A DNA stretch of 64,000 bases from Candidatus Hydrothermus pacificus (GTDB lineage: Bacteria; Hydrothermota; Hydrothermia; Hydrothermales; Hydrothermaceae): the NCBI GenBank assembly GCA_002011615.1, contig MTOH01000008.1, forward strand, positions 6,460 to 70,459, in the 5' to 3' direction. Of this stretch, positions 32,564-49,108 are shown in pieces. Each line of letters opens with the position of its first letter. Position 1 is the stretch's first letter. Under the pieces are notes generated by a model. The model did no database searches. It had not been told where the DNA came from and was given only the letters and a program-made list of their open reading frames with translations. A program made the translations under genes and the position numbers.

Positions 32564-33352
32564 ATGAATTTTCTTGCTGATTTATTCTTAAAAATATCGG
32601 GTGGAAATATAATACTTCTCGGGCTTTATGGAGGAATTGTAATCACCCTTTTGAATATGATAGGGGCACTTCTTGTGCTCTTTTTTACAAAAGTATCTCA
32701 GAAACTTATGGATGCAATGCTCGGTTTTGCAGCAGGAATTATGCTCGCAGCAAGTTTCACCAGTTTAATTCTTCCAGGGATTGAAATAGGCGGTGTTCTA
32801 CCTGTTCTTGCAGGAGTTTTGATAGGAGCATTTATAATGGATTTAGGAGACCATTTAATCCCCCATATGCATTTTATAAAGGGAAAAGAAGGGATTAAAT
32901 CAGAGAGATTAAAGGCTGTCTGGCTCTTTATAATAGCAATAACCCTTCACAATATGCCAGAAGGGCTTGCAGTTGGGGTTGGATTTGGTTCAGGGAAATT
33001 AAAAGAAGCAATAGTTTTGATGATGGCAATAGGGATTCAGAATATTCCCGAGGGATTTTCAGTCGCAATATCTTCTATGAGTGCTGGATTCGGGAAAAGA
33101 TTTTATGCTGCGGTTGTAGGAATAAGGGCGGGGCTTGTTGAAATACCCCTTGCAATTCTGGGAGCCTGGCTTGTAAGTGTAATGAAGGCAGTCTTGCCCT
33201 ATGCAATGGGATTTGCAGCAGGAGCAATGCTCTATGTAATAAGTGATGAAATAGTCCCTGAAACCCATAGAAAAGGGCATGAAAGACTCGCAACCTTTGG
33301 AACAATACTTGGCGTTGTTGTTATGCTTTATTTAGATATTGCTCTGGGATAA
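32564..33352 (+). CDS. ZIP-family metal cation transporter (ZupT/GufA-like)
   Basis: 8 TM helices with the HNMPEGLAVG and EGF.V ZIP signatures. Confidence 0.85.
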   Translation: MNFLADLFLKISGGNIILLGLYGGIVITLLNMIGALLVLFFTKVSQKLMDAMLGFAAGIMLAASFTSLILPGIEIGGVLPVLAGVLIGAFIMDLGDHLIPHMHFIKGKEGIKSERLKAVWLFIIAITLHNMPEGLAVGVGFGSGKLKEAIVLMMAIGIQNIPEGFSVAISSMSAGFGKRFYAAVVGIRAGLVEIPLAILGAWLVSVMKAVLPYAMGFAAGAMLYVISDEIVPETHRKGHERLATFGTILGVVVMLYLDIALG

Positions 33353-33436
33353 TAAAACTGTATTCTGCCCTTTACTTTATCATAATATCCTATCGTTTAT
33401 AATTATTTTTGACCATTCTCAATTATTCTTTTATAT

Positions 33437-34414
33437 TCACAAATTCCCTTCCTCTATATCTTTTTTAACTCGCTCCTCTATCCATTTATATGTTATTTCA
33501 AGCCCTTTCTTTATCGTGTATCCCGGTTTCCAGCCAAGGGAATATATTTTCTCATGGCTGAAGTTCCTTGATTGAACTCCTACAGGACCTGAAACCCATT
33601 TTACATTTAATTTCACTCCTGCTATTTCAAATATCATATCAACAAGTTCCTTTACAGAAATATATTCTTCTGTCCCTATATTTACAGGTTCCTCAACATC
33701 TGATTGCATCAACATATAAACTGCAGATACAAGGTCATCTACATATACATAATTTCTTATTGCACTTCCATCACCCCAAACCTCTATATGGTCCTCGCCT
33801 TTTAACTTTGCGGTTGCAACCTTCCGGCATATTGCAGCAGGAGCTTTTTCTCTCCCTCCTTTATATGTGCCCTCAGGTCCAAAACAATTTTCAAATCTTG
33901 CTATTCTAACCTTCATTCCATAACGCTTTGCATAAGATAGAGCAACCCTTTCTGAGTATAGTTTTTCCCAGCCATATTCATTATCGGGCATTGCAGGATA
34001 AGCATCTTTTTCATACAGTTTTGGTTCACCGGGTTCCATATCACGGTAAATACATACAGAGGATGAAAAAAAATACCTTTGAATTTCCATTTCTGCAGAT
34101 GTTTTTATCATATAAATGTTTATAAGAACATTATTTGTGAGTGTTTCACATTCTGCCCATGAGATAAAACCCATGCCTCCCATATCTGCGGCGAGTTGAT
34201 AGACTTCATCAAACTTGCCTTCATGAAGGGTCAATGCTTTTTTGCAATTTTCAGGTTCTCTTAAATCCAGAATCAGAAATTCATCAGCCTGTGTTGGAGA
34301 GAATTCAGGATACTTTAAATCAACACCCCTCACCCAGTATCCTTTGTTTTTTAAACACTTCACAAGATGATGACCTATAAATCCACCAGCGCCACAAACA
34401 AGTGCTTTTTTCAT
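33437..34414 (-). CDS. NAD-dependent nucleotide-sugar epimerase/dehydratase (GDP-mannose 3,5-epimerase-like)
   Basis: GAGGFIGHHL Rossmann motif and a Y..K catalytic dyad. Size is 325 aa. Confidence 0.8.
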   Translation of the reverse strand: MKKALVCGAGGFIGHHLVKCLKNKGYWVRGVDLKYPEFSPTQADEFLILDLREPENCKKALTLHEGKFDEVYQLAADMGGMGFISWAECETLTNNVLINIYMIKTSAEMEIQRYFFSSSVCIYRDMEPGEPKLYEKDAYPAMPDNEYGWEKLYSERVALSYAKRYGMKVRIARFENCFGPEGTYKGGREKAPAAICRKVATAKLKGEDHIEVWGDGSAIRNYVYVDDLVSAVYMLMQSDVEEPVNIGTEEYISVKELVDMIFEIAGVKLNVKWVSGPVGVQSRNFSHEKIYSLGWKPGYTIKKGLEITYKWIEERVKKDIEEGNL

Positions 34415-34536
34415 TAAACCTCCTTTTTCGTATTTATTGCGTTAGCCTTGTTAATTAATTTCAAATTTAGCAACCCGAATTTTTCCTCTCCTCTTCCAGT
34501 TTTCTTACCCCCTGCCCTTCCTATTAAGGAATGGGA

Positions 34537-34563
34537 GATTTTGTGAGCAGGTTGTTATTTTAC
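34537..34563 (-). promoter_or_regulatory. Polysaccharide-locus leader core motif, copy 1 (GATTTTGTGAGCAGGTTGTTATTTTAC on + strand)
   Basis: 27–28-nt element present 4 times in the window. Each copy is in the 5' region of a minus-strand polysaccharide gene. This copy is about 125–150 nt upstream of the epimerase start. Confidence 0.45.
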
Positions 34564-34583
34564 TCATCCACCCATTCATTCAT

Positions 34584-35957
34584 CTACCCATCAACCATTT
34601 CTTCAAATTTATACAACATAAGATTTGGAGGACGGGTTTTGCTTAACTCAGGAGAAAAACCGGATAGAGAGAAAAAAGCATAGTAAATTTTTTTAACTTT
34701 GAGCGGAAATTTCTTTGATTTCTCACACAGCTTTTTGAAATCTTTTTCATTAACGGGTTTATTACTGTATTTGCATTCCCCGAGAAGAAACTCTTTATCT
34801 CCGATAAGAACAATATCAATTTCCAGATTTCCGTCCCAGAAACTTCCTGCTTTTTTGAATTTAAAAGGAATGAGATGGGGTCTCTGATTGATAATTTGTA
34901 ATATTACCTCTTCAAATATTTTACCCATATAGGTATCAAAATCTCTTTTTATAAAGTTTAACAATTCACCGCTTCTACCGGTTTCTATAAGATGGGAGTT
35001 ACCGAATACATACCTGAACCAGAATCTGAAGAAGTAATCTTTTATGATATAAATTCCCTTTCTTGATTTTCGTTTTCTCTCGGTAACCGGAATTTTTCTT
35101 TCTACTAAATCCATTTCCTGAAGAGAAGAAAGGTGTTTTGAAACAACACGGGAATCGGTATGCATGGAAGAGGATATTTCGGATAGTTTTACCTTCCCTT
35201 CTCCTATGCTTTTCATAATTGTAAAATAACCGAAAGGTGACCTTATCTCTTCAGGAAGTATGATTTGGGGTTCCATATACAGGGGAGAGATGGGATTCAA
35301 GAGTTTTTCTTTTATATTTTCCCATAGAGTTTTTTTTATGTCTATCTCAAGGATATACCTGGGGGTACCTCCGAATACCCCGTAAAATCTGAGAAGAGTT
35401 TTATAATCATGACCGGGAAAAAATTTTATAAAATCAAGAAATTTGAAGGGTAAGATTTTCAGCTGTCCTGTTCTTCTGCCATAAAGAGGATGGGCATAGG
35501 AATTTATCATCTTTTCCATCATTGAAATATGGGAACCGCAAAGAATTATCATTATTTTTTTGTCTTTTAAATGCAGGTCCCATACTTTCTGTAAAATAGA
35601 ATCTATGGATGGCTCAACGATCCGAAGATAGGGATATTCATCAATTATAAGTAATATTTTTTGTTTTATTTTTTGCGAAATATACCTGAAAATAGGTTCA
35701 AAGGAATCAAATTTACTTTCTCTGAATACAGAATCTTTGAAGAAATCTGCCACTGTTTCCTTAAAGGAGTTTATCTGATACATCCTATCGGTAAGGTCTG
35801 CAATATAAAAAATAGCGGGTTTTCTCTTGGAAAATGTTTTAAGAAGTTCGGTTTTACCCACCCTTCTCCTTCCCCACATTATTATAAGACTGGATCTGCT
35901 TGAAAGATATTCCTTCTCCAGAAAATCAATCTCGGCTTCTCGATTTATAAATTTCAT
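34584..35957 (-). CDS. AAA ATPase (archaeal-ATPase PF01637-like) with C-terminal DUF234 domain
   Basis: Walker A GRRRVGKTEL near the N-terminus. A Walker B LLIIDEYP motif follows. Size is 457 aa. Confidence 0.7.
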   Translation of the reverse strand: MKFINREAEIDFLEKEYLSSRSSLIIMWGRRRVGKTELLKTFSKRKPAIFYIADLTDRMYQINSFKETVADFFKDSVFRESKFDSFEPIFRYISQKIKQKILLIIDEYPYLRIVEPSIDSILQKVWDLHLKDKKIMIILCGSHISMMEKMINSYAHPLYGRRTGQLKILPFKFLDFIKFFPGHDYKTLLRFYGVFGGTPRYILEIDIKKTLWENIKEKLLNPISPLYMEPQIILPEEIRSPFGYFTIMKSIGEGKVKLSEISSSMHTDSRVVSKHLSSLQEMDLVERKIPVTERKRKSRKGIYIIKDYFFRFWFRYVFGNSHLIETGRSGELLNFIKRDFDTYMGKIFEEVILQIINQRPHLIPFKFKKAGSFWDGNLEIDIVLIGDKEFLLGECKYSNKPVNEKDFKKLCEKSKKFPLKVKKIYYAFFSLSGFSPELSKTRPPNLMLYKFEEMVDG

Positions 35958-36016
35958 AATATGAGTAGACTAATTATAATATGAAAAAGGGGTAAATTGC
36001 AACATTTGAGTTAATT

Positions 36017-36070
36017 GCGTTTATCGTGTTTATTGGGTTTATTGAGTTTATTGCGTTTTTTGGGTTTTGC
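36017..36070. repeat. Six tandem 9-nt repeats GNGTTTATT immediately 3' of the BY-kinase gene
   Basis: Units gcgtttatc/gtgtttatt/gggtttatt/gagtttatt/gcgtttttt/gggttttgc read directly. The same family recurs in-frame inside the kinase gene at 36484..36546. Confidence 0.5.
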
Positions 36071-36128
36071 ATTTCGCAATCCGAAATCCAAATTTCCTTT
36101 TCATCCTTTCACCCTTTCACCCATTCCC

Positions 36129-37361
36129 TTATTTTGCTTTTTCCCCATAATATTTACTGTAATATTTGTAATGGTAATAGTAGTAATAGCTTCCTCTTTT
36201 TTTGGGGACTGCGTTCATCACAACCCCTATTATTTCTGCTCTTGAGGCAAGAAGGATATCCCTTGCATCTTCAAGTTCTTTGAAGTTTGTTTTTCCGTAT
36301 CTTGCTGTTATTAACACTCCATCAGCATAAAGGGCAAGATATGCTGCATCTGCGAAAAGAAGAACAGGAACACCGTCTATGATTATATAGTCATATTCTT
36401 TTTTTAAGGTATGTATTAACTCCTTCATTTTTTCTGACTGGAGAAAGATGAAGGGATTTGGAGGGATGTTTCCAACAGGTAAAGCGTTAATCGCGTTTAT
36501 TGAGTTTGTTGGGTTTTCAGGGTTTATTGCGTTATTTGCGTTTTTTGTGGGAGTGAGGGTGATGACGGCTTCTTTGAGGTCTATTTCACCTTTTAATACA
36601 TCAAAGAGTCCTTCTTCTTTTTTGAGTTTTGTTATATCGGTTAAGTGTCCTTTTTTCTTTCTGAAATCGGTATCAACTACTATTATTTTTTTGCCCACCT
36701 GAGAAAGGACTGCGGAAAGGTTTAAGGCAACAAAGGTTTTTCCTTCTTCAGGGCCCAGGGAAGTTACATATATTACTTTATATTTTTTCTCAGGATGGGC
36801 AAATTCAAGGTTTATTGAGAGCTTTCTGAAGGCTTCAAATTCTCCTGATGATGAATCCTGAGAGAATATTTTTAATTCTTCACTTAATTTTTCTCTTCTT
36901 ATTAAATCGGTTATTTTTCTTTTTTCTCTATCAGCAAGGGGTATTGAGGCAAATACGGGTAATCCTGTTCTTGCTTTTACAAGGTCGGGGGCTTTTACTG
37001 TATTGTCAATGTATTCTGCTATGAAGACAGCAAAACCTCCTACAAGGAGGCTTATTATGAAAGAGAGCAGAAGAATTAAAAGGGGTTTTTTTGCATTTAC
37101 AGGTTTTGGAGATATGATGGGGGGGTTTATTATTTTTAAATCACTTGTTACACCCGCCTCTTTTACCCTTATTTCTTCAAGTTTTTCTGCAAAAAAGGTG
37201 TAGAGTTTTTCTGCTGTTTCTTTATCTCTTTCAAGTCTTGCAAGTTCTACTTCGTCCTGAGGAACATCTTTGAGTCTCACCTGCAAAAGAGCTATCTGGT
37301 TTTTTACGCTCTGTATCTCTGTTTTTATTGAGGACATCCTTTTTGTTATTTCTTCTTTCAT
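36129..37361 (-). CDS. Polysaccharide co-polymerase coiled-coil/TM2 region fused to bacterial tyrosine (BY) autokinase (Wzc C-terminal part)
   Basis: Coiled coil, TM helix, P-loop GKTFVALNLSAVLSQ, Walker B VVDTD and a C-terminal tyrosine cluster SYYYYYHYKYYSKYY. It contains the NAINPENPTNSINAINA low-complexity insert. Confidence 0.8.
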   Translation of the reverse strand: MKEEITKRMSSIKTEIQSVKNQIALLQVRLKDVPQDEVELARLERDKETAEKLYTFFAEKLEEIRVKEAGVTSDLKIINPPIISPKPVNAKKPLLILLLSFIISLLVGGFAVFIAEYIDNTVKAPDLVKARTGLPVFASIPLADREKRKITDLIRREKLSEELKIFSQDSSSGEFEAFRKLSINLEFAHPEKKYKVIYVTSLGPEEGKTFVALNLSAVLSQVGKKIIVVDTDFRKKKGHLTDITKLKKEEGLFDVLKGEIDLKEAVITLTPTKNANNAINPENPTNSINAINALPVGNIPPNPFIFLQSEKMKELIHTLKKEYDYIIIDGVPVLLFADAAYLALYADGVLITARYGKTNFKELEDARDILLASRAEIIGVVMNAVPKKRGSYYYYYHYKYYSKYYGEKAK

Positions 37362-37441
37362 CTGTTCTTTTAAACCCTCAAGTTGTGCTTTTATTTCAAG
37401 AACTTTTGGGTGGGAGGAGGAGTATTCTTTTAAGAGCCCTT

Positions 37442-38623
37442 TTAACCGGGCTTCAACCTGTAGAAGCTCTGTAAAACAGGGTCTGATACAAGGGCAACTG
37501 CAAAGTTCAGGGTTGTATCACCTGAATGACCTGATGCGAGGTATTCGCCAAGGTCTTTAAGTATTTTTTGTTCTATTTCCAGTTGATTTTTTCTTGATTC
37601 AAGCTGGGAAACCTGTGAAATGAGGCTCTGGGTGGAGGCTCTTAAATCCGCAATTCTCTTTTTTTCTTTGAAATCTTTGATTTTTTCCTCAAGTTCTGTG
37701 AGTTTTTGTTGATAAAGGGAAAGCTGGGACCCCACGAATTCTCTTGATTGAATGAACTGCAATGATTTTTCTTTTATATCTTCTTTTATTATCTGGTCAG
37801 ATAGGACCTGTGCTATTTTTAATGCATCTTCAGGATTTCCCCAGTAAACGTTTATCCTTAATATTCCTATCAGGTTTAGACCAGGGAATATTGTTCTTGC
37901 GGTTACCAGTTTTTTTGAGGCTGCCTCACCTGAAAAGGGGACACCACCGAAACCAACTTCTTTTTCTATTTTGTCTGCTTCAAGAACTTTTATTGAGAGG
38001 GAATTTCTTAATGAAAGGGCTACTTTCTTTTTGGGATAAAAGGTGACTTTGAATTCTTTTCGAAGTTTTTTCTCCTCTGATTTTTCAAGGGGAATTATCC
38101 TGAATTTTAAAACTCCAAGGTTTATGTATTCTTCAACAATTCCTTCCTTTATTTTTCTGCCCTTTTCATCGTAAACCTCTACATTTTTTCCATCTATCTT
38201 TATTTTTAAAGGTCCTATCGGGTCTTTGAAGTTGTAAAGGATTTTTGTCTGAACTTTTATGTCACTGACTCCATCTTTTACATGGGCATAAAGGGAAAGG
38301 CTGTCAACAACTTTTTCTGCAAGATTTGTTGATAAGAGGTTTGATATTATTCTCTGGGTTACTGTTCCTATCTGGATTGTAGGCGTTTCGGATGCTGGTG
38401 AGAAAAAGGCTTCCATAGGTTTTTCCTCTGATATTCCAATGTCAAAGGTTGCAAGATAGATGGGGGTGTGGGGTCTTAAAAACTGGAAAAGGATTATTGC
38501 AATGAAAAGGATAAGGGAAACAGAAAAGAAAAGTCCTTTCCTCCTCAGGAATATGTTTAATATATCCCTGAGGGTTATTTCTTTTTCTTCATAAAAATTT
38601 TCTTTAATTTCTTTCATTTGCAT
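37442..38623 (-). CDS. Wzz/chain-length-determinant periplasmic domain protein (Wzc N-terminal part)
   Basis: N-terminal TM helix and a periplasmic Wzz-like domain. The reading frame of the downstream kinase ORF stays open back across this stop, so the two ORFs read as one frameshifted wzc-like gene. Confidence 0.7.
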   Translation of the reverse strand: MQMKEIKENFYEEKEITLRDILNIFLRRKGLFFSVSLILFIAIILFQFLRPHTPIYLATFDIGISEEKPMEAFFSPASETPTIQIGTVTQRIISNLLSTNLAEKVVDSLSLYAHVKDGVSDIKVQTKILYNFKDPIGPLKIKIDGKNVEVYDEKGRKIKEGIVEEYINLGVLKFRIIPLEKSEEKKLRKEFKVTFYPKKKVALSLRNSLSIKVLEADKIEKEVGFGGVPFSGEAASKKLVTARTIFPGLNLIGILRINVYWGNPEDALKIAQVLSDQIIKEDIKEKSLQFIQSREFVGSQLSLYQQKLTELEEKIKDFKEKKRIADLRASTQSLISQVSQLESRKNQLEIEQKILKDLGEYLASGHSGDTTLNFAVALVSDPVLQSFYRLKPG

Positions 38624-38642
38624 TACTTGCGTTTATAGAGAA

Positions 38643-38670
38643 GATTTTGTGGGCAGGTTGTTGTTTTATT
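38643..38670 (-). promoter_or_regulatory. Polysaccharide-locus leader core motif, copy 2 (GATTTTGTGGGCAGGTTGTTGTTTTATT)
   Basis: Begins about 20 nt upstream of the Wzz-domain gene start and is flanked by a GTGAATGGATAAATGAAT purine tract. Confidence 0.45.
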
Positions 38671-39812
38671 CATTTATCCATTCACCATTTTCTTCTCTAC
38701 TTAACAATTTTCTCATTCCAAGGTATAATAAATAGGGTTCTTTTAAAAGCATCTGGAAGAAGAATTTTCTTGCCCTGTCTCTTGAAAGATGATAGAATAT
38801 TGATTTAAGTTTTTTTGAAACTTTTAAAAGAAGCCTGTCATATTCGTCATTATTCATTTTTGAAAGGACTTTCCTTATGTAAAAGTGTATGTCCATTTCC
38901 CTTTTTAAGTTTTTATAAAGTTCTTTTAAACTCCTGTTTTCTGAGATTGCACGGGAGGTTACGAAGGCGCCCCAGAAACCCGTGAAGGTTCCTCCAACTG
39001 TTGTCATTTTTACCTGAAAACCTGCATCTCCCACCAGAAAGGCTTTTATACCGTTAAAGTGGACTTCGGGGCAGAAGGAAGGTTCATAACAGGATGTGAA
39101 ACCCTCTTCATACTCTATTACTTCAAAATTTCTTTCTTTTAAAAATTGGTCAAGTTTTTGTCTCACATTTTCTTCATCTGCGCACAAACCACAAACTCCT
39201 GTTTTTTTTTGAGTCAGGTATCAGCCATATGAAGTAATCGGTAAATCTTTTGTCAAACCATATTTTTACAACATCTGAGTTTGATTCAGGAGGTAATGCA
39301 ATTTTTGCCTGAATGAGATGGATTTTTTTGGGAGTTATGTGAAAGCTTTTCGCAACCCTGCTCTGCACACCATCTGCGCCAACTATGGCGCTGACTTCAA
39401 AGTGTTCTTTTTTGTCGGTTCCCTTTAATTTGAACTCGGTTATTGTTTTTTTTCGGTCATTAAAAATTTTTATAAATTCTCTGCCTTTGAGTAAAGAAAC
39501 TCCTTTTGAAATTGCAATTTTTTCAAGGTATTTTATTAAATCGCTCCTTTGAATAACAAGGTCTGGTTCTTTCAAGGGAATCGTGATTTTTTGATTCTTT
39601 GAAAAGATTTCAAAAGTTTTTACCCTGTTTAAGACGAGGTTCTCTGGTATGTGGAGAAAGCTGGAAACTTCGGGCGTTATTATAAGAGTTCTTTTTGAGG
39701 GAACCTGGTTATCATCTCTTTTTTCAAAAACAATTGATTTTATGCCCCTTCTGGCAAGACTTATGCCTGTATATAAACCACTGCTCGAAGCACCGATGAT
39801 TATTGCATTCAT
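38666..39812 (-). CDS. FAD-dependent oxidoreductase of the geranylgeranyl-reductase family, interrupted by an apparent frameshift
   Basis: The N-terminal ORF (39174..39812) has the FAD-binding IIGASSSGLYTG motif. The C-terminal ORF (38666..39187) has VGDAGFQVKMTTVGG, the GDAxG motif. The frames meet at an A9 coding-strand homopolymer. Confidence 0.6.
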
Positions 39813-39850
39813 TTTGCCCTATTTTGACACCCCGGGGGTGTAAATGGGCT

Positions 39851-40477
39851 TCATTTTACTCTTTCAAGGGTTATGTAAAGGTTGAGGACCGAGACTGCAA
39901 GGGCAAGGGTGTTTAAAATTATTCCCCAGTTTATCCTGAATTTTTTGGGAATGTAAACCCAGTCCCCTGATTTAAGTTCAAAGTTTTTATCAGTAAGACC
40001 CTTTTTAAGGATTTCGTCAACGTTTATTTTAAGAGAAACAGGTTTTCCCTCCGCGAATCTGACAACCATTACACCTTTAAGGTTTGCATCGGGTGTGGGC
40101 CCTCCTGCAAGGGCTATGTAGTCAGTGATTTTCAGGCCTCGCTGATATTCAACTGCTCCGGGTCTTAAAACTTCTCCGAAAACTGATACATGAGGTAATG
40201 TGGGGCTTTTTAATATTACTGATACAACAGGATGGGTGAAATAGTTTTTAAGTTTCTGTGCAATGAGTTTGCCTGCTTCCTCGGTTGTTAATCCTGCTAT
40301 TTTTACTTCACCTATCAGGGGAAAAGAGATGTTTCCATTGTGCATTACCATAACGGTTCTTGAGAGTTCCTCCTCACCGAGAATTAATATCTCAAGCACA
40401 TCACCGGGTTCAATGTGATAGACTTCCTCTGCAAACAGAGGAAAGATCAAAAACAAAGTTATTAGAAATTTTTTCAT
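39851..40477 (-). CDS. Polysaccharide export protein (Wza-like periplasmic Poly_export/SLBB)
   Basis: Signal peptide, PGDVLEI motif and SLBB-like region. Size is 208 aa. Confidence 0.75.
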   Translation of the reverse strand: MKKFLITLFLIFPLFAEEVYHIEPGDVLEILILGEEELSRTVMVMHNGNISFPLIGEVKIAGLTTEEAGKLIAQKLKNYFTHPVVSVILKSPTLPHVSVFGEVLRPGAVEYQRGLKITDYIALAGGPTPDANLKGVMVVRFAEGKPVSLKINVDEILKKGLTDKNFELKSGDWVYIPKKFRINWGIILNTLALAVSVLNLYITLERVK

Positions 40478-40804
40478 GGTCTCTATTACTTAATATTTTT
40501 TAAAAAAAATTAGACTCCGCCCATCCCGTTTTGTTAAAAAACGGGTATCCATTCTTAAACTCCTATAAAGTAAGCACAGATAAATATTTTACTTCAGTAA
40601 ATTGTTTTTTGTCAATAGCAATAATACCATTTTTTTAAATTTTTTTGTTGCATATTTGCAACTATATTAAAAGTTTTTACATGTAAAATTTTTACATCAT
40701 TTGCGTTAGCTGGCTTCGTATTTCTTTTCAACCCATTAATCATTTATTCATTCTCCCATTCACTGTTTTCACCCTCCATTCAGCCTTTCCATCAGGAGAG
40801 GAAA

Positions 40805-41094
40805 GATTTTGTGGGCAGGTTGTTGTTTTATTTGCCTTGATTTTTTCACCCCCCTCTTTGTCTCCCCCCATCAAGGGGGGAGAAATGGAAGAAGGTAACT
40901 CCGTCAAGGGGGGAGAAGTGGAGGGAAACGATTCCATTAAGAGGAGAGAAGCGAAAGAAGGTAACTCCATCAAGGAGAGGGAACAGAAAAAAGTGGCTCT
41001 TTCAAAGGGAGAGAAGTGGGAAAAAGTGCTTCTATTAAAGAAGAAATGGGAAAAAATGGCTCCATTAAGGGGAAAGGGAGGAAAAGCACCCTGG
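40805..41094 (-). repeat. Composite leader element A: core motif copy 3, a C6/G6 hairpin and 7 degenerate 33-nt tandem repeats
   Basis: Core motif at 40805..40832. Palindrome TCTCCCCCC-ATCAA-GGGGGGAGA at 40861..40883. Tandem units (A/G)TCAAGGGGGGAGAARTGGARGAAGGTAACTCC at 40870..41094. Positions 40807..40916 are about 95% identical to 43717..43826. Confidence 0.6.
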
Positions 41095-41202
41095 CCTTTG
41101 CCGATTCTATCATTTGTGCTGATTGCAATCATTGCGTTTGTTGTGTTAGTCTGGTCCGGTTTGTTCATTTGCTAAAACCTGTGGTCTAGTTCTAATTTTC
41201 GC

Positions 41203-41733
41203 TCAAATCCATTTTAAAAACTCTTCTTTTTTTATCTGAAAAGCACTCCCCGCAAATATTTCTTTTATCCACGCGATTATGAGGTTGTTTTTTTCATTAA
41301 ATTCTTTCACAACTACTGTATAACCTGCAAAAGGACCATTTCTAAAGGTTATTTCTTTACCTCCTTCTATGTTGTAAACAGGGAAAATCTTATCTTTCTT
41401 GTTCTCAACAAGTCTTTTTAGAGAAAATATTTCTTTTTCATCAATTATAGAAGGAATGCCATTAAATTTTACATAACCCATTGAACCCTTTAAATCCATT
41501 GCTATATAAAAGTGTTTTGTTCTTGGAATTGTTTTTAAGAACACGTAAGAGCGAAAAAGAGGAATCTCTACTTCTTTAAAGTTCTTAGACCTTATAATTC
41601 TGGTTGGAAGAAATGATTCTATCTGGAAAGTCTGTAATATATTATAGACTTTTTTCTCATTATTTGGTTTTGTGTAGAGAACGAGCCAAACAGGGTAATT
41701 TATCTCGTAGAAAAAATTCTTCATTCCCTCCAT
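41203..41733 (-). CDS. NusG-family specialised paralogue (RfaH/UpxY/LoaP-like transcription antiterminator)
   Basis: N-terminal NGN domain (WLVLYTKPNNEKKVYNILQTFQIESFLP) and a C-terminal KOW-like region (GPFAGYTVVVKEFN). Size is 176 aa. It is embedded in the polysaccharide locus, 10 nt downstream of the preceding gene. Confidence 0.7.
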   Translation of the reverse strand: MEGMKNFFYEINYPVWLVLYTKPNNEKKVYNILQTFQIESFLPTRIIRSKNFKEVEIPLFRSYVFLKTIPRTKHFYIAMDLKGSMGYVKFNGIPSIIDEKEIFSLKRLVENKKDKIFPVYNIEGGKEITFRNGPFAGYTVVVKEFNEKNNLIIAWIKEIFAGSAFQIKKEEFLKWI

Positions 41734-41743
41734 TTATAGGATT

Positions 41744-43381
41744 CTATTTACCGAGAAGTTTTAATCTTCTTTCAGTCTTTTTGAGGTATTCTCTTGCCTT
41801 TGAATTACCGGGGTCGGCTGCAAGGACTTTTTTGAGAAGCTCTTTTGCCCTGCCGTAATTGGCTTTCTGGTATTCCGTTATTGCCTGATTGAGCATCCTC
41901 TGAATCTGAGACTTTGTATAGGCGGGTTTTGAAGGCTTTTTGGCAGGCTTCTTCGGTGTAACTTTTTTTCTTGCCAGTTCTTCTGAAAGGGATTTTATCT
42001 TTGCACTTGCTTCCTCATTCTCAGGGTCAAGTTTTAAAACCTCCTGCCATGCCTTTATTGCATTCTGTAATTGCCCTTTTGATTCGTATTCAAGAGCAGA
42101 ACTTCTTGCAGATACTATTTTGTTCTGATAAAGGGTCAGGAATTGAGAATATTCTTTTGAAAGACCGGGATATGCGGGATATATCTTTTTAGCCTGCTCA
42201 TAGTCCTTTTTTGCCTGATAAAAGTTGCCTTTTTCCACATTCTCCCTCGCTGATTTTATGTAGGTAAAGGCTCTTTCTTTTCTTGTTATTTTTAGAGTTA
42301 AAGGGATTTTCACGGTTAATCTTTTTCTTCCTTTTTTGATATTCAGTTTAACCTTAAGGGTTTTATATTCGGGCATGCTTATTTTAACCATGTAAATTCC
42401 TGGCATGAGTTCGTAAGAAACATTTCCTTTTTCATCGGTTTTTAAAGGAGGAAGTTTTGTTTCAGTAAAGCTTATAATTGCATTTTTTAAGGGTTCTTTT
42501 ATCTCTTTATCGTAAACGCTAAAGGTTACATACACAGGAAGGGGTTTTGTCGGTATTATATTTGAATTTACTGTTAAGGCTCCTGTGAATCTGTAAAAGG
42601 GATGTTCCTCCTCTTTTACAAAGAATAGTCCTTCAAGTTTTGTGAAGGCAAGAGCAAAACTAAATCCACCTGTTTGAACTTTCAAGCCCATATTCAGGTC
42701 TCTTCCGTCTATCTCGGTTATGAATGAAAGATATGGGAGAATGTTTATTTTAGCACCTCCAAAAAGTCCCAGAGAAAGGTCGTGATAGGAGTCCATGTAG
42801 TGATCTATATTTAGATATTTGCTTCTGGGTCCGTATCCTATGAACTCACCTCTTCCAAGACCCAGACTCATTTCAAACCTTTCACCAAAGGTCTTTGTGG
42901 CAACGAGATAGAGGGAAAATATTTCAGGATTTCTTCTGAATTTGCCTTTATAGTTTTCGTCTCTGAAACCACCTTCAGGAGGCTCTCCACCTGCCGGATT
43001 TATATACCTTTTATAGGAAATATTTCTTATCCCAACTGCAAGGGCAGGATAATTGGCAAATTCCTCCATTATCAAGTAGGAAAAATCTGCTGATATTTCG
43101 CTCAGAGTGTATATCTTTAATCCTATCATATACTTTTTAAAGAAACTGACATATCCAAAAAGGTCAAAGTTTGAGGGGTGAGGCTCTATAGATTTATCAT
43201 AATTTTTGAGGGCAATTGAAGATGTGAGGCCTGCCTCCCAGTAAATGTTTTCTACAGGGAATTTTGCAGTAGGGGACTCGAAAATAGTGCTGGAATTGAT
43301 TGCTTGAGAGAAAAGTAAAGATATTATAAAAAGATTTATAAATACACCACACCCCACTTTTTTTATGCACCTCATTTGCAC
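41744..43381 (-). CDS. Secreted protein with N-terminal beta-rich domain, Ig/CarboxypepD_reg-like domain and C-terminal TPR repeats
   Basis: Signal peptide and a PKKPAKKPSKP basic linker, with TPR-like helices at both ends. Size is 545 aa. It is the first gene downstream of leader element B. Confidence 0.5.
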   Translation of the reverse strand: MQMRCIKKVGCGVFINLFIISLLFSQAINSSTIFESPTAKFPVENIYWEAGLTSSIALKNYDKSIEPHPSNFDLFGYVSFFKKYMIGLKIYTLSEISADFSYLIMEEFANYPALAVGIRNISYKRYINPAGGEPPEGGFRDENYKGKFRRNPEIFSLYLVATKTFGERFEMSLGLGRGEFIGYGPRSKYLNIDHYMDSYHDLSLGLFGGAKINILPYLSFITEIDGRDLNMGLKVQTGGFSFALAFTKLEGLFFVKEEEHPFYRFTGALTVNSNIIPTKPLPVYVTFSVYDKEIKEPLKNAIISFTETKLPPLKTDEKGNVSYELMPGIYMVKISMPEYKTLKVKLNIKKGRKRLTVKIPLTLKITRKERAFTYIKSARENVEKGNFYQAKKDYEQAKKIYPAYPGLSKEYSQFLTLYQNKIVSARSSALEYESKGQLQNAIKAWQEVLKLDPENEEASAKIKSLSEELARKKVTPKKPAKKPSKPAYTKSQIQRMLNQAITEYQKANYGRAKELLKKVLAADPGNSKAREYLKKTERRLKLLGK

Positions 43382-43714
43382 CTCCTAAGAATAAAAAAAA
43401 TTATACACTAAAAAAAACCGGTTTGTCAACAAGAAGGATTAAAAAATATCTGGGTCCGGGCTTGTAAATTTACTTTAACTATCATATATAATTATAATAT
43501 CTTTGGTTTTATTTATTTTAAAAAGGCTCCGCCCTGTTTTACATGTATAGCATAATTATAATATTTAAATATTAAGACTTTATAAAAATTTTGTAAAGAT
43601 TTTGTTAATTTTTGTATTTTTCACTTATTTTTCGTTATTTTAGTTTTTAATATTTTTACTCATTCTCCCATTTGATATTTTCACCTTCCCTTAATCTTCT
43701 TATCAAGGCAGAGA

Positions 43715-43909
43715 AGGTTTTGTGGGCGGGTTGTTATTTTATTTGCCTTGATTTTTTCACCCCCCTCTTTGTCTCCCCCCATCAAGGGGGGAGAAGTGAA
43801 GGAAGGTAACTCTGTCAAAGAGAAGGAATAGAAAAAAGTGCTCTCATCAAGGCAGGAGAAATGGAAGGGAACGGTTACATCAAGGAGTGAGAAATATGAG
43901 AAAGGGTTT
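43715..43909 (-). repeat. Composite leader element B: core motif copy 4, a C6/G6 hairpin and 4 degenerate 33-nt tandem repeats
   Basis: Core GGTTTTGTGGGCGGGTTGTTATTTTATT at 43715..43742. Hairpin at 43771..43793. Tandem units at 43780..43909. It is a paralogue of element A. Confidence 0.6.
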
Positions 43910-43954
43910 GTTTTGACTTTCTATTTTTTCACAACTTCTAATTTTTGTATACCA

Positions 43955-44587
43955 TTAGAATTTATATTCTACAAAAATCTTTCCCCTGTCCTTTTGCATC
44001 CTGAATCCCATTTTCCATTTCTCTATTTTTTTCTTTGAAAGGAAGTAGGTTTCTATAAAAGAAGTGATATGATTTAAAACAATGCCCAGGAAAACAAGTC
44101 TTTTCCGTTGTTCCAGTTTTCTCTCCTTTGCTCTCAGGTTGATAAATCTTATCCATTCCCTTTCTGATGACCATTTCCATTTGTCTTTTATCCTGTGTTT
44201 TTCCACATATTCTTCCTGTGCCTTTAAATCGTTCGGGTAGATACTTCTTGCCTGTCTTCTTAAGTATTCAATATACTGGTCATAGGAAAAATAGTCCTCA
44301 ACCTTTATCCAGTAGTCCTCGGATTTTATACCGGGGTTGGCATCTGCATAAATATTTGCGAAAACGCGATAATCGCTCACAATATTGTTAACATTGTTGT
44401 TCATAAGGAAATAGGAAAATAAAAGGGTAGCTTCAGAAAAAAAGAAGAGTTTTGCAACTTCTTTATCTCCTGAAAGGTAGTTTCCAAGACCGGGAACAAT
44501 TCCTGAAAATCCTGCATAAATCAGAGGATTTTCAAACTTTGGCATGCTGAAATTAAATATTATCTCCATAAGAATTAAGGCTTTCAA
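43955..44587 (-). CDS. Hypothetical membrane protein (210 aa)
   Basis: N- and C-terminal hydrophobic helices. The start overlaps the gyrA stop region. Confidence 0.35.
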
Positions 44588-47010
44588 ATTTCTTCCTCCT
44601 TTTTTATAACGCAGGCATCAACAAGAACATCGTTCTTTTTAAGCCTTATAAGTTTTATGCCTGACGCTCCTCTTTTAAGTCTTTTTATACTGGAAACTTT
44701 GATTCTTAAAACATTACCTTCTTTTGTCATCAAAATAATCTCATCATCTTTACCTGCACTTTTTACCCATAGCAGATTGCCTGTCTTTTCAATAATCTTA
44801 TGAAACAGGATTCCCTTGCCTCCTCTATGGAAAGCTCTTATCTCCTCTGGTTTAACTCTTTTACCAAATCCTTTTTCTGTTATTGATATTATGTCTTCTC
44901 CTTCTCTCACCACAGTTCCTCTTGCAACCTGCTCACCTTCAGAAACTTTTATACCTTTAACCCCGTAAGCATTCCTGCCCATAGACCTTACCTCATCTGA
45001 ATTTATCTTTATTGCAAGTCCTGTATTTTTGGCAAATATGACTTCGTCACTCTTTTTAAGTTTCAAAACATCAACAAGTTCGTCATTTTTCGGTAGAGAA
45101 AGAGAAATAATTCCTCTCCTTCCTGCATTTCTAAATGCATACACGGGAGTCTTTTTTATAATTCCTCTTTTGGTTATAAAGAACACATATTCTTCTGAAG
45201 TCCATGCGGTGGTGCTTATCATATCAACTATTTTCTCATCCTCTGTAACAGGGAAAATAGTGCTTATGTGTTTACCTCTGCTCTGCAGGCTGCCTTCGGG
45301 AATTTCAAACCCCTTTACAGAATAACATTTCCCTCTATGAGTAAAAAGAAGCACATAATCATGGGTATCACATGTAAATATAACCTTTGGAAAATCTCCT
45401 TCATAGAGAAATACTCCGCTCCTTCCGACCCCTCCTTTTCTCTGAGACCTTATTGAAGAAACAGGAATGCGTTTTACAAAACCTGATTCTGTAAGGATAA
45501 CCATAATTTTTTCCTGCTGGATAAGGTCTTCAATCTTTATTTCCTCACGTTCTTTTTCAAGAATAAGTGTTTTTCTCTCATCTCCATATTTTTTCTTTAT
45601 TTCTTCAAACTCCTTCTGGATTACATCGAGTAGTAATTTCCTATTTCTCAGGGTAGTTCTATATTTTTCAATATCCTTAATTAAATTCGCGTATTCTTCT
45701 TCAATTTTATTTCTCTCAAGCCTTGTAAGGTTCTGGAGTCTCATATCCAGAATCGCCTGTGCCTGTTTTTCCGTGAGTGAGAATTCTTTCATCAGTTTTT
45801 CCCTTGCTTCTTTTGGTTCTTTTGAGGTTTTTATAAGGTTGACCACCTTATCTATATTGGCAATTGCAACCTTGAAGCCTTCCAGTATATGTGCTCTTTC
45901 CTCTGCCTTTTTTAAAAGGAACTCTATTTTTCTTCTTGTAACTTCTTCTCTGTGTTTTAAATAAAGAAAAATCATATCCTTAAGAGACAGGATTTTAGGT
46001 TCACCATCCACAAGGGCAAGCATTATTGCGCCAAAGGTAATCTCAAGGGGTGCTAATTTGTAAAGAAGGTTCATAACAACATTTTCATTAATCCCTCTTT
46101 TTAACTCCAGAACAATTCTTATACCTTCTCTGTCAGATTCATCTCTCAGGTCAGATATGCCCTCTATTCTTTTTTCCCTGACAAGCCTGGCTATTTTTTC
46201 AATCAGAGATGACTTGTTAACCTGATACGGGATTTCTGTTATAACTATCTTTTTGTGCCCTCTTGTGCCTTCTTCAACAGTTGCTTTTCCTCTTAAAACA
46301 ATTCTGCCTCTACCTGTGAGATAACAGTCCCTTATGCCTGATTTGCCCAGTATGATTCCACCTGTGGGAAAATCAGGTCCTTTAACTATTTTCATTATCT
46401 CTTCATCATCTGCATCAGGATTGTTTATAAGAAGGATGAGGGCATCAATTATTTCTTTTATATTGTGAGGAGGTATATTGGTTGCCATTCCTACAGCTAT
46501 ACCTGAAGAACCGTTTACAAGAAGGTTTGGAAACTTTGAAGGCAAGACAAAAGGCTCTTTTAATTTGCCATCAAAATTCGGGATAAAATCAACAGTGTTT
46601 TTATCAATATCTTCAAGCATTAACATGGCAAAAGGTGAAAGTTTTGCTTCTGTATATCTATAAGCAGCAGGCGGGTCACCATCAACAGAGCCAAAATTCC
46701 CCTGTCCGTTAATTAAAGGGTATCTGAGTGAGAAATTCTGAGCCATTCTGACAAGAGCATCGTAAACAGCCATGTCTCCGTGAGGGTGGTATTTACCGAG
46801 AACCTCTCCCACAACATTTGCACATTTTTTAAAGGGCTTATCAGGAGTTAAGTCGAGTTCAAGCATTGCATATAGAATTCTCCTGTGAACAGGTTTTAAA
46901 CCATCTCTTACATCGGGAAGAGCCCTTCCAACTATCACACTCATAGCATAATCTATATAACTGGTCTTCATCTCGTCTTCTATATACACAAGATCTATTT
47001 TTTCAGGCAT
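44584..47010 (-). CDS. gyrA: DNA gyrase subunit A
   Basis: 808 aa with an AAMRYTE-type active-site Tyr region ([10 protein letters not shown]) and a QRDR-like region ([17 protein letters not shown]). C-terminal beta-pinwheel repeats are present. Confidence 0.95.
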
Positions 47011-47022
47011 ATTCTGACCTCC

Positions 47023-48006
47023 TTAAAAATTTATTTTTACAAACTTTTCTCTGCATTTTTTGATTTTACCGAGAAAATAACAGGGTTCTTTTTTTCTTTT
47101 AAAATAGTTGTTTATTTTTATTTTATCTTTTTTATCCACTATCATTATGATTCCTATTCCCATATTAAACACCCTGAACATTTCTTCCCATTCAACATTG
47201 CCTTTTTCTTTAATAAATTTGAAGATTTCAGGAAATTTAAAATCTTTAAAATCAATTTCAGCACAGAGATTTTCTGATAAAACCCTTTTAAGGTTTCCTT
47301 CAAAACCACCGCCTGTTATATGGACAAGAGCTTTAATATAATTCTTTTTAATTAAAGGATAAACAAGTTTGTAATAACTTTTATGGGGTTTAAGAAGTAT
47401 GTTTTTTAACTTCTTTCCTTTTAATTTTGAATCCAGATTTATCCTGTTGTTTTTTAAGATTTTTCTAACAAGAGAATAACCGTTGGTATGCAGACCCGAA
47501 GATGCAAGCCCGTATAATAAATCACCCGGTTTTAACCTCTTTGGCAGGATTTCTTTTCTGCCGGCTATCCCGACCATGCATCCAACAAGGTCAAAGTTAC
47601 CACTTTTATAGACATCGGGCATCTCAGCAGTTTCACCTCCCAGCAGAAAAGCATCGTTATCTCTCAATGCCCTGTTTATGCCTTTTACAATCTGGAGAGT
47701 GTCAACTTCTTTAAGATTTGAGGATGCAATGTAATCAAGGAAAAAAAGTGGTCTTGCACCGGAACATAAAAGGTCGTTCACACAGTGATTAACAATATCA
47801 ACTCCTACACCCTCCAGATAACCTGCCTCTCTTGCAAGAATAACCTTGGTTCCCACACCGTCTATTGTGGCGGAAAGGTATTTATCCTTTTCTATTTTGA
47901 TGAGGCCGGCAAATCTCTCTTTTGAAATGTTCTGAAGAAATTTTTTAATTTTTGTCTTCAGCGCATCAGCATAATCTATGTCAACTCCTGCTTCTTTATA
48001 TTTCAT
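47023..48006 (-). CDS. purM: Phosphoribosylformylglycinamidine cyclo-ligase (AIR synthetase)
   Basis: GVDIDYADAL...TIDGVGTKV... PurM N-domain signature. Size is 327 aa. Confidence 0.9.
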   Translation of the reverse strand: MKYKEAGVDIDYADALKTKIKKFLQNISKERFAGLIKIEKDKYLSATIDGVGTKVILAREAGYLEGVGVDIVNHCVNDLLCSGARPLFFLDYIASSNLKEVDTLQIVKGINRALRDNDAFLLGGETAEMPDVYKSGNFDLVGCMVGIAGRKEILPKRLKPGDLLYGLASSGLHTNGYSLVRKILKNNRINLDSKLKGKKLKNILLKPHKSYYKLVYPLIKKNYIKALVHITGGGFEGNLKRVLSENLCAEIDFKDFKFPEIFKFIKEKGNVEWEEMFRVFNMGIGIIMIVDKKDKIKINNYFKRKKEPCYFLGKIKKCREKFVKINF

Positions 48007-49108
48007 ATCTCCACATTATGTCTTCTGCTATTCTTTTTATCGGATTTTTCATTAATTTTAAAACTTTTCTGTATTCTTCAATGTCCTTACCATAGGGGTC
48101 ATAAATATCCATCTTATTTGATGAATAGCCTGAAAGAAGCCTGACTTTTTCTCCAAAACCGAGATAGGAGAGTCTGGCAAAATGTTTTCTTTCCATTACA
48201 AATATAAAATCAGCCCATTCAAGGGTCTCAACATCAATGGGTCGCGCTTTATGGAAAGATAAATCCATTCCCATTTCTTTGAGAACCTTCATGGCATTTT
48301 CACTTAGCCGACTTCCCGGAACAGGGTTTATGCCCCTTGATTTTATTCTCACAATTTTCCTTAAACCAGAGGGTAAATATTTTTTCATAAGTCCCATTGC
48401 CATGGGTGACCTGCAGGTATTGCCGGTGCATATAAAGAGTATATTAAGAGTAATATCTCTGTTCAGTTTAATCTTCCGCAGGATTGTTTCTTCTATTGTA
48501 ACTATTGATACAGGACCTTTACGTAAAAGTTTAAAGGGGTGTGTTGAAACATCAAGCACAGTAGAAGGGGGAAGCCCATAGGAATTCTCCGGGAGCACAT
48601 AATCAACCTGTTTTTTTATAAGTGAATCAATCCTTTTGTATCCTCTAACAGGAGATTTCCCTGAAACATTGGCTGATGTAGTCGCAAGTGGTCCTGTTTT
48701 ATCAATTAATTCAAGGATTAAAGGATAATCAGGAATCCTTATACCCACCTTTTTATCCTTTGATATCCATAAAAAATTTGCGTTCAGTTTTGATTTAAAA
48801 ACAAGGGTCAGAGGGCCTGGCCAGAATTCGGAAATTATTTTTTCTCTCAAAATTCCGAGCTTTAAAGGCATCACAAATTTTTTTAATTCATTTTTGCTGT
48901 TAATAAATATAATGAGAGGTTTATCAAATTTTCTTTTTTTTATAGAATATATTTTTTTCTGACCTTTGAGGTTTAAAAAATGGGTCCCCAGACCCATCAC
49001 TGTATCTGTAGGTAATGCTATTACACCACCTTTCTTTATAACTTCACCTGCTTTCTCTATCTCCAGCTTTCTTGTGAGAGCATTCATAAAAACTAACAGA
49101 AAGCCCAC
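47996..49108 (-). CDS. L-threonylcarbamoyladenylate synthase (Sua5/YrdC/TsaC) fused to a low-molecular-weight protein tyrosine/arginine phosphatase
   Basis: N-terminal YrdC fold (GGVIALPTDTVMGLG). The C-terminal LMW-PTP P-loop is ILFICTGNTCRSPMAMG (CX5R). Size is 370 aa. Confidence 0.75.
   Translation of the reverse strand: MGFLLVFMNALTRKLEIEKAGEVIKKGGVIALPTDTVMGLGTHFLNLKGQKKIYSIKKRKFDKPLIIFINSKNELKKFVMPLKLGILREKIISEFWPGPLTLVFKSKLNANFLWISKDKKVGIRIPDYPLILELIDKTGPLATTSANVSGKSPVRGYKRIDSLIKKQVDYVLPENSYGLPPSTVLDVSTHPFKLLRKGPVSIVTIEETILRKIKLNRDITLNILFICTGNTCRSPMAMGLMKKYLPSGLRKIVRIKSRGINPVPGSRLSENAMKVLKEMGMDLSFHKARPIDVETLEWADFIFVMERKHFARLSYLGFGEKVRLLSGYSSNKMDIYDPYGKDIEEYRKVLKLMKNPIKRIAEDIMWRYEI

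Follow-up and report, generated by a model that had tools for sequence, protein, structure and literature searches.

An UpxY-type NusG paralogue and a candidate ops-like loading site in the polysaccharide export loci of WOR-3 bacteria

The presence of a gene for a NusG paralogue inside a polysaccharide export locus raises the question of whether it encodes a dedicated regulator of that locus and, if so, at which element of the DNA this regulator would be loaded. Two families of repeated elements surround the gene in the 64-kb stretch of DNA analysed here (hereafter the window), and the initial annotation had taken one of them, a core motif shared by the downstream units, as the partner of the protein. 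UpxY proteins are reportedly the NusG paralogues of Bacteroides capsule loci, recruited at opsX sites (Chatzidaki-Livanis et al. 2009/2010; Saba et al. 2024), and the UpxY/opsX scheme has, to our knowledge, been shown experimentally only in Bacteroides fragilis. We propose that the protein, a specialised NusG paralogue (NusG-SP) of the UpxY type from a WOR-3 bacterium, probably loads in the leader that follows its own gene, at an ops-like site, and would make transcription of the export operon processive. What we establish by comparing sequences is the family of the protein, the order of the genes, and where the motif lies and how well it is conserved.

A NusG paralogue within a conserved export locus

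The polysaccharide locus is an export and regulation module of about 10 kb (33.4-43.9 kb of the window), and the remainder of the window is occupied by housekeeping genes, e.g. gyrA, purine genes, mutS, hypD, and rpsA. Downstream of the paralogue, the minus strand encodes Wza (Poly_export and SLBB domains), an FAD oxidoreductase, Wzz, a kinase with GNVR and AAA_31 domains, a DUF234 ATPase, and an epimerase (Table 1). Immediately upstream lies the gene of a TPR protein, the N-terminus of which resembles a signal peptide when the translation is judged by eye. The paralogue had been described as the second gene of its operon, and this is upheld both by the position of the stop codon of the 545-aa TPR gene, 10 nt before the start of the paralogue, and by the pairing of the two genes in relatives.

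Table 1. Features of the export locus and its leaders, with positions in the window.
Feature	Position	Strand	Basis or remark
Upstream partner gene, 545 aa, CarboxypepD_reg-like domain and C-terminal TPRs	41744..43381	minus	ORF and domain search
NusG paralogue gene, 176 aa, NGN and KOW-like C-terminal domain	41203..41733	minus	ORF translation and domain search
Presumed target operon	36129..40477	minus	Wza 39851-40477; FAD oxidoreductase 38666-39812; Wzz/BY-kinase 36129-38623
Promoter-like P1, TTGACA-18-TATAAT, 12/12	43400..43429	minus	about 20 nt upstream of the Shine-Dalgarno sequence of the TPR gene
Promoter-like P2, TTGACA-18-TAAAAT, 11/12	40586..40615	minus	Wza unit
Ops-like copy 1, GGGCGGAGCC, then T	43524..43534	minus	perfect copy; only GCGNAGC in the 64-kb window
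Ops-like copy 2, GGGCGGAGTC, then T	40512..40522	minus	35 nt upstream of the Wza ATG; position kept in relatives
Candidate pause hairpin, CCCGTTTT-ttaac-AAAACGGG	40525..40545	minus	ends 2 nt before the ops-like motif
Lineage-specific repeat insertion, about 440 nt	40700..41139	minus	alignment with the L168 leader
Copies of the core motif AACAACCTGCCCACAAAATCT	34536-34556, 38642-38662, 40804-40824, 43715-43735	minus	motif scan

The initial description of a 176-aa product with an NGN domain and a KOW-like end also agrees with our searches. In Pfam, the NGN domain is matched strongly (PF02357, residues 16-105, E=2e-12, 47.9 bits for a cut-off of 22.2) and the KOW domain weakly (residues 132-152, E=0.022, 15 bits, below the cut-off of 22.3). 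A C-terminal pattern, GxxIxFxxGPFxG, is kept across the paralogue family, and in the AlphaFold2 model the C-terminus (approximately residues 121-176, pLDDT 70-86) folds into four beta strands at 126-168 that resemble a KOW barrel; the mean pLDDT of the whole model is 59, with low confidence in the NGN domain. The top PDB matches of this model in Foldseek are NusG and RfaH, and when the PDB profile search is included the top matches are NusG, RfaH, and Spt5 proteins only. From this model and the weak domain match, the C-terminus may be KOW-like.

The association of the paralogue with export genes is conserved. Loci of relatives, each covering the gene and at most 10 kb of flanking sequence, are designated here by L numbers, and the order TPR protein, paralogue, and then Wza and/or a Wzc-like Wzz-kinase was found in L004-L006, L008, L009, L088-L091, L168, L170, and L171. 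This order is kept in all sampled species-level relatives but one: in L007/L010 (56% identity), the gene lies in an unrelated context, with neither TPR nor Wza neighbours and with no ops-like motif. In L004, the downstream operon runs on along the same strand for over 10 kb and includes genes for methyltransferases, a flippase, and glycosyltransferases. The possibility that relatives have no linkage to EPS loci, raised in the initial annotation, is thus contradicted by the conserved linkage to Wza/Wzc. The distance from the paralogue to Wza or Wzc is 80-270 nt in relatives (about 80 nt in L004) and 725 nt in the window. No UpxZ gene was found right after the paralogue in the window or in the relatives' loci, the gap in the window holding only repeat-derived ORFs, and the TPR protein itself is unlikely to be a cytoplasmic UpxZ-like partner because of its signal-peptide-like N-terminus. 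In the WOR-3 locus L019 (412-2258), a NusG-like gene 28% identical to the paralogue comes directly after a homologue of the TPR-protein gene, which suggests that the pairing is older than the close paralogue family.

Two genes of the presumed target operon are interrupted in the window. The Wzz/BY-kinase is split by a frameshift at about 37440, between 37442-38623 and 36129-37361, which is either an assembly error or the mark of a pseudogene; Wzz and BY-kinase form one Wzc-like ORF of about 800 aa in L004, L008, L088, L090, and L091. The FAD-dependent oxidoreductase is frameshifted at about 39185, at a run of nine A (39174-39812 / 38666-39187), and is a single ORF in L008; an error in sequencing might explain this, or else variation by strand slippage. 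Further downstream, the DUF234/ATPase_2 gene (34584-35957, minus strand) is 89% identical to a gene of L091 (14987-16357), with the flanking locus genes at only about 60%, which suggests a recently transferred cassette. This gene has a promoter-like site of its own (35973-36002), and the 9-nt tandem repeats that precede it (36006-36067) recur within the kinase ORF (36468-36562). About 4.6 kb upstream of the TPR gene, a minus-strand gene (47996-49108) encodes a fusion of a Sua5/YciO/YrdC domain with a low-molecular-weight phosphotyrosine phosphatase domain, and this protein may serve the Wzc-type kinase as a Wzb-like partner.

Conserved and lineage-specific elements of the leaders

One motif accompanies the paralogue from species to species. 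The sequence AAGAkGGGCGGAGCCT occurs in gene orientation downstream of the paralogue in all of the species-level loci for which a leader is available (10/10). When its central part is searched as GGC[AG]GAG[CT]C in these 10 species-level loci, the sense-strand leaders that follow the paralogue, 2.9 kb in all, contain 12 of the 13 occurrences (Poisson P ~2e-20); the remaining 307 kb contain a single one, which precedes the TPR gene of the window. Across the alignment GGCGGAG, C, and T are invariant and AAGA is nearly so; written as a hairpin, G-GCG-G-AGC-C-T is invariant in the 10 aligned instances save for one stem C-to-T change, in the Wza-leader copy of the window. This copy reads GCGGAGT, with a G-T pair in the stem, and that of L168 (in full, GGGCAGAGCC) reads GCAGAGC, i.e. 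there is one stem change in each; L090 and L091 carry two copies of the motif. The additional copy of the window, ops-like copy 1, is about 100 nt upstream of P1, within a partial duplicate of the repeat-bearing leader, and is possibly involved in autoregulation.

The surroundings of the motif are also conserved in part. The best predicted promoter of the TPR gene is P1, with hexamers kept in L168 and L171, and the hexamers of P2 are kept, with variable spacers, in L168, L008, and L009. In the window and in these last three loci, the ops-like site follows TTGACA/TAAAAT hexamers and precedes the start codon by 19-35 nt. Since it lies downstream of conserved promoter hexamers, the site is presumably transcribed. 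Just before it, the window and L168 have a candidate pause hairpin with a perfect 8-bp stem ending at -14, the stem being identical in the two and the loop different, whereas the RNA pause hairpin of class-1 opsX sites ends at about -9 to -14; in other WOR-3 leaders the upstream hairpin is absent or weak and AT-rich. Two palindromes just upstream of the Wza promoter, TTTTACATGTAAAA (40675-40688) and GTTGCAAATATGCAAC (40647-40662), both given on the minus strand, are kept in L168 and are likely operator sites for DNA-binding regulators. A scan of positions 33000-45000 against Rfam at E<=1 gave no known RNA family, and a simple scan for intrinsic terminators in the operon, which the paralogue might let polymerase pass, found fewer than in shuffled sequences and none in the minus-strand intergenic regions.

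The motif resembles the sites at which specialised NusG paralogues are known to load. In B. fragilis, UpxY proteins are recruited in leaders at opsX, a site that combines a pause hairpin stabilised by NusA with a hairpin of the non-template DNA, 5'-YGCGNAGCR (Saba et al. 2024, PMC11685472); the stems of opsE, CTGCGAAGCATA, and opsA, CCGCGTAGCGCA, resemble the ops of RfaH, GCGGTAGC (PMC11685472). The WOR-3 motif aligns with opsE without gaps, from GCG through a one-base loop to AGC, its flanking bases being complementary and its T falling on the -1 pause position, and it is also in register with opsA; the flanking pair is G:C, not Y:R as in class-1 opsX. The classical ops, GGCGGTAGnnTG, was not found in the window at up to 1 mismatch. 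It shares the GCG/AGC stem and the T where polymerase pauses, with a loop of 2 nt where that of WOR-3 has one base, and an ungapped comparison with GGGCGGAGCCT gives 7/11 matches. Related sequences accompany UpxY-like genes elsewhere: GGCG[AG]AGC in sense orientation, no more than 400 nt from such a gene, has a density of 0.47/kb, against a background of 0.021/kb (22-fold), and is present in 50 of 137 loci. GGCGAAGC is the commonest GC-rich 8-mer in the flanks of the 137 UpxY-like genes. In seven loci from outside WOR-3 (L029, L032, L070, L071, L094, L152, and L162, three of them Bacteroidota MAGs), a clear hairpin is followed by GAAAG and then GGCGGAGCC beside the UpxY-like gene, and the hairpin arms vary in a compensating manner (GGTTACA/TGTGACT, GGTCAC/GTGACT, GGTTCT/GGGACT). 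By these sequence criteria, a general signature resembling opsX seems to be spread far more widely than B. fragilis.

Could GGGCGGAGCC be kept for another reason, as an operator, a promoter element, or a LoaP-like signal in the nascent RNA, with the paralogue recruited differently or non-specifically? A few observations lean this way. The tie between motif and protein is drawn from sequence, the copies of L090 and L091 lie 240-430 nt upstream of Wza and are followed by a TATAAT near its start codon, copy 1 of the window is upstream of promoter P1, and LoaP has been proposed to use an RNA hairpin (PMC11685472). Yet the motif is strand-specific and non-palindromic, is located downstream of conserved promoter hexamers in four species, and matches opsE in register, including the pyrimidine at -1, and the enrichment of the related 8-mer beside UpxY-like genes concerns other phyla. 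We therefore regard such another role as unlikely, and keep GGGCGGAGCC as the candidate loading site.

The core motif of the initial annotation, AACAACCTGCCCACAAAATCT, has a weaker claim to be that site. The motif is real: its four copies (at most 2 mismatches), all on the minus strand and intergenic, are confined to the 10-kb locus, where 0.01 would be expected by chance in the whole window; the other 54 kb contain no copy. The annotation had the paralogue acting through the copy at the head of each downstream unit. Such a role could draw on the clustering of the copies in gene orientation and on a related repeat found in L168, at another place, 3' of Wza, where the contig ends, which indicates some affinity of the element family for the locus. 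Against it, no match with up to 5 mismatches was found in the other relatives' loci scanned (L004-L010, L088-L091, and L168-L171), where the protein is 56-82% identical, and the motif has no likeness to known ops or opsX sites. Moreover, the copy between paralogue and Wza sits in the repeat insertion: the leader has 725 nt in the window and 266 nt in L168, the orthologue of which is 82% identical, both leaders agree closely over the 225 nt next to the promoter, and the insertion is missing from that of L168. Because it is missing from the L168 leader and from the relatives' loci scanned, we interpret AACAACCTGCCCACAAAATCT as a lineage-specific repeat and not as the partner of a conserved protein, and reject it as the recruitment site; a role of this kind seems very improbable. 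The regulator and its cis elements had been thought to be visible together through this shared core; the conserved element is instead GGGCGGAGCC, which, unlike AACAACCTGCCCACAAAATCT, co-occurs with the paralogue across species.

The repeat insertion has a composite structure. It contains an array of degenerate 33-nt units with CTCC-TTGAT-GGAG mini hairpins, then the AACAACCTGCCCACAAAATCT copy at 40804-40824 and a GAATGG-rich tail, and the element is bounded by AACGCAATGAT and AACGCAAATGAT. A partial copy is found at 43650-43900, and all the copies found are within the export locus in gene orientation. The many (A/G)ATGGA motifs of the element recall the GGA repeats bound by CsrA/RsmA. The array also contains ORFs of 142 aa (40740-41168, minus strand) and 112 aa (40837-41175, plus strand), the latter made of 11-aa repeats and a hydrophobic tail, and gene callers have annotated ORFs of this kind elsewhere (assemblies L001-L003). 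Given that the corresponding L168 leader does without the array, they are probably spurious, and for the same reason we reject them as real genes or as an analogue of UpxZ. A repeat that catches the eye in a leader is thus not necessarily what the regulator recognises. A rather doubtful possibility is that the lineage-specific repeat insertions add barriers of pausing or termination that make the operon dependent on the paralogue.

Family assignment of the paralogue

Among the curated NCBIfam models, UpxY (NF033644) fits the paralogue best, with 83.6 bits, a score under the cut-off of 100. The cut-offs are likewise not reached for RfaH (TIGR01955, 47.7 bits for 144.5), LoaP (NF033641, 44.1 bits for 125), and housekeeping NusG (TIGR00922, 35.1 bits for 135.7), and UpxY is the best-scoring model in all the family members (12/12). 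An exhaustive phmmer search in a library of 1.84 billion representative proteins retrieved 1729 proteins at E<=1e-3; the paralogue family is the single cluster with at least 50% identity, and the next identity is 38%. All the nearest neighbours that were scanned (113/113) match UpxY at E<=1e-20, 56 of them also match RfaH, and none matches TIGR00922 at that level. In a search of contigs, the closest genomes (56-70% identity) are MAGs of candidate division WOR-3, followed at 28-40% by more WOR-3, Bacteroidota, Fidelibacterota, and Marinimicrobia MAGs and some unclassified bacterial MAGs, and the identity of the paralogue to any protein from outside WOR-3 is at most about 40%. The beta2-beta3 segment of the family, LPTRIIRSKNFKEVEIP, resembles that of class-1 UpxY, LPTQFVIRQLYKRR[R/K]RVEVP (PMC11685472), and the pattern LPT...VE[IV]P is common to this segment of the paralogue family and UpxY.

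As far as these profiles and alignments tell, the paralogue family branches divergently among the specialised NusG paralogues of the UpxY type. The view of the gene as a specialised, locus-embedded NusG paralogue thus holds, borne by the UpxY model, the UpxY-like neighbours, and the conserved Wza/Wzc linkage. It is extremely improbable that the gene is instead the divergent housekeeping NusG of the organism, for which one could invoke the automatic JGI name 'transcription antitermination factor NusG' and a 64-kb window without another nusG, because the TIGR00922 score is far under its cut-off, the neighbours are TPR and Wza genes and not secE-nusG-rplK, a single cluster at 50% identity is followed by a gap down to 38%, the number of proteins retrieved implies that canonical NusGs are mostly not even detected, and a universal essential factor is expected to give graded orthologues across the phylum. 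This argument from model scores, gene context, narrow clustering, and the identity gap is indirect but strong. Searches with Escherichia coli queries found no canonical nusG or rplK (L11) in the window or in the 167 loci L001-L167, i.e. none nearby. The comparison shows that genes annotated as 'NusG' in WOR-3 export loci are, by sequence affiliation, specialised paralogues.

A putative UpxY/opsX scheme with a different layout

The comparison with known systems places the WOR-3 loci closest to UpxY, with differences in arrangement. As in UpxY, the paralogue has an NGN domain, here with a putative KOW domain, and is embedded in the polysaccharide locus it would control, and as in opsX, some leaders have a hairpin just upstream of the site. 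The paralogue gene is second, behind an exported TPR protein, whereas the UpxY gene is first in its operon. The ops-like site is downstream of the regulator and before Wza/Wzc, whereas opsX is upstream of the regulator; only the window has an extra upstream copy. The WOR-3 loci have no UpxZ gene and no evident invertible promoter; some Bacteroides UpxY are also without UpxZ (PMC7593976). The phylum is WOR-3 instead of Bacteroidota, with a score under the NCBIfam cut-off for the family.

The other relatives are more remote. RfaH of enterobacteria, with its ops or JUMPStart element, is likewise a specialised NusG paralogue for long envelope-polysaccharide operons, the target operon of the WOR-3 protein being presumed, and the two are about 25% identical, an approximate figure. 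RfaH is encoded away from its targets and the paralogue within its locus, and the C-terminal domain of the latter is modelled, with modest confidence, as beta strands, the alpha-hairpin of RfaH not being seen. LoaP, of Firmicutes and Actinobacteria, is also a NusG paralogue, found beside the polysaccharide operon (or secondary-metabolite operon) that it activates, and also involves a leader hairpin, but it is proposed to read a hairpin of the nascent RNA, not of the non-template DNA. With housekeeping NusG the paralogue has in common the two-domain fold family, and it differs from that factor by a narrow distribution, linkage to the export locus, and the lack of secE/rplK neighbours.

The process, of which the first two steps rest on sequence and its conservation and the later ones are inferred, would probably involve 1) joint transcription of the TPR gene and the paralogue from P1, a sigma-70-like promoter; 2) transcription of the leader from P2, or by read-through where the gap is about 80 nt, as in L004, along a layout that would comprise the promoter, an optional pause hairpin, AAGAkG-GGCGGAGCC-T, a T-rich tract, a Shine-Dalgarno sequence, and the start of Wza or Wzc; 3) pausing of RNA polymerase at the invariant T after GGGCGGAGYC; 4) folding of the non-template G-GCG-G-AGC-C, which can form a small hairpin as in class-1 opsX of B. 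fragilis; 5) binding of the paralogue to the exposed non-template hairpin and to the upstream AAGA duplex; 6) displacement of housekeeping NusG by the loaded paralogue; and 7) processive transcription of the long export and biosynthesis operon by the modified complex. The pausing, recruitment, and antitermination at the ops-like site would be as they are in the systems that it resembles. The WOR-3 system thus appears to be of the UpxY/opsX kind, in a new phylum and with a somewhat different layout.

A broader and more speculative reading is that much of the NusG-SP radiation inherited the recognition of the ops hairpin from a common ancestor and did not invent it several times, and that the WOR-3 family is a minimal version with one regulator and one site, devoid of UpxZ and with the site following the regulator gene. 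It is suggested by the occurrence of N-GCG-N-AGC-N' and the pause T in the same register in WOR-3, in many UpxY loci of the Bacteroidota type, and, with a 2-nt loop, in the proteobacterial ops. We offer it tentatively and consider it rather doubtful.

The loci described here would extend the UpxY/opsX scheme to the uncultured phylum WOR-3, with GGGCGGAGCC-T, at 40512-40522 and 43524-43534 of the window, as the candidate recruitment site. The site is GC-rich and stands out in AT-rich leaders, and each locus has one regulator and does without UpxZ. As a result, these loci may offer a simple setting in which to learn what bases, in the hairpin and in the upstream AAGA box, determine the specificity of recruitment.
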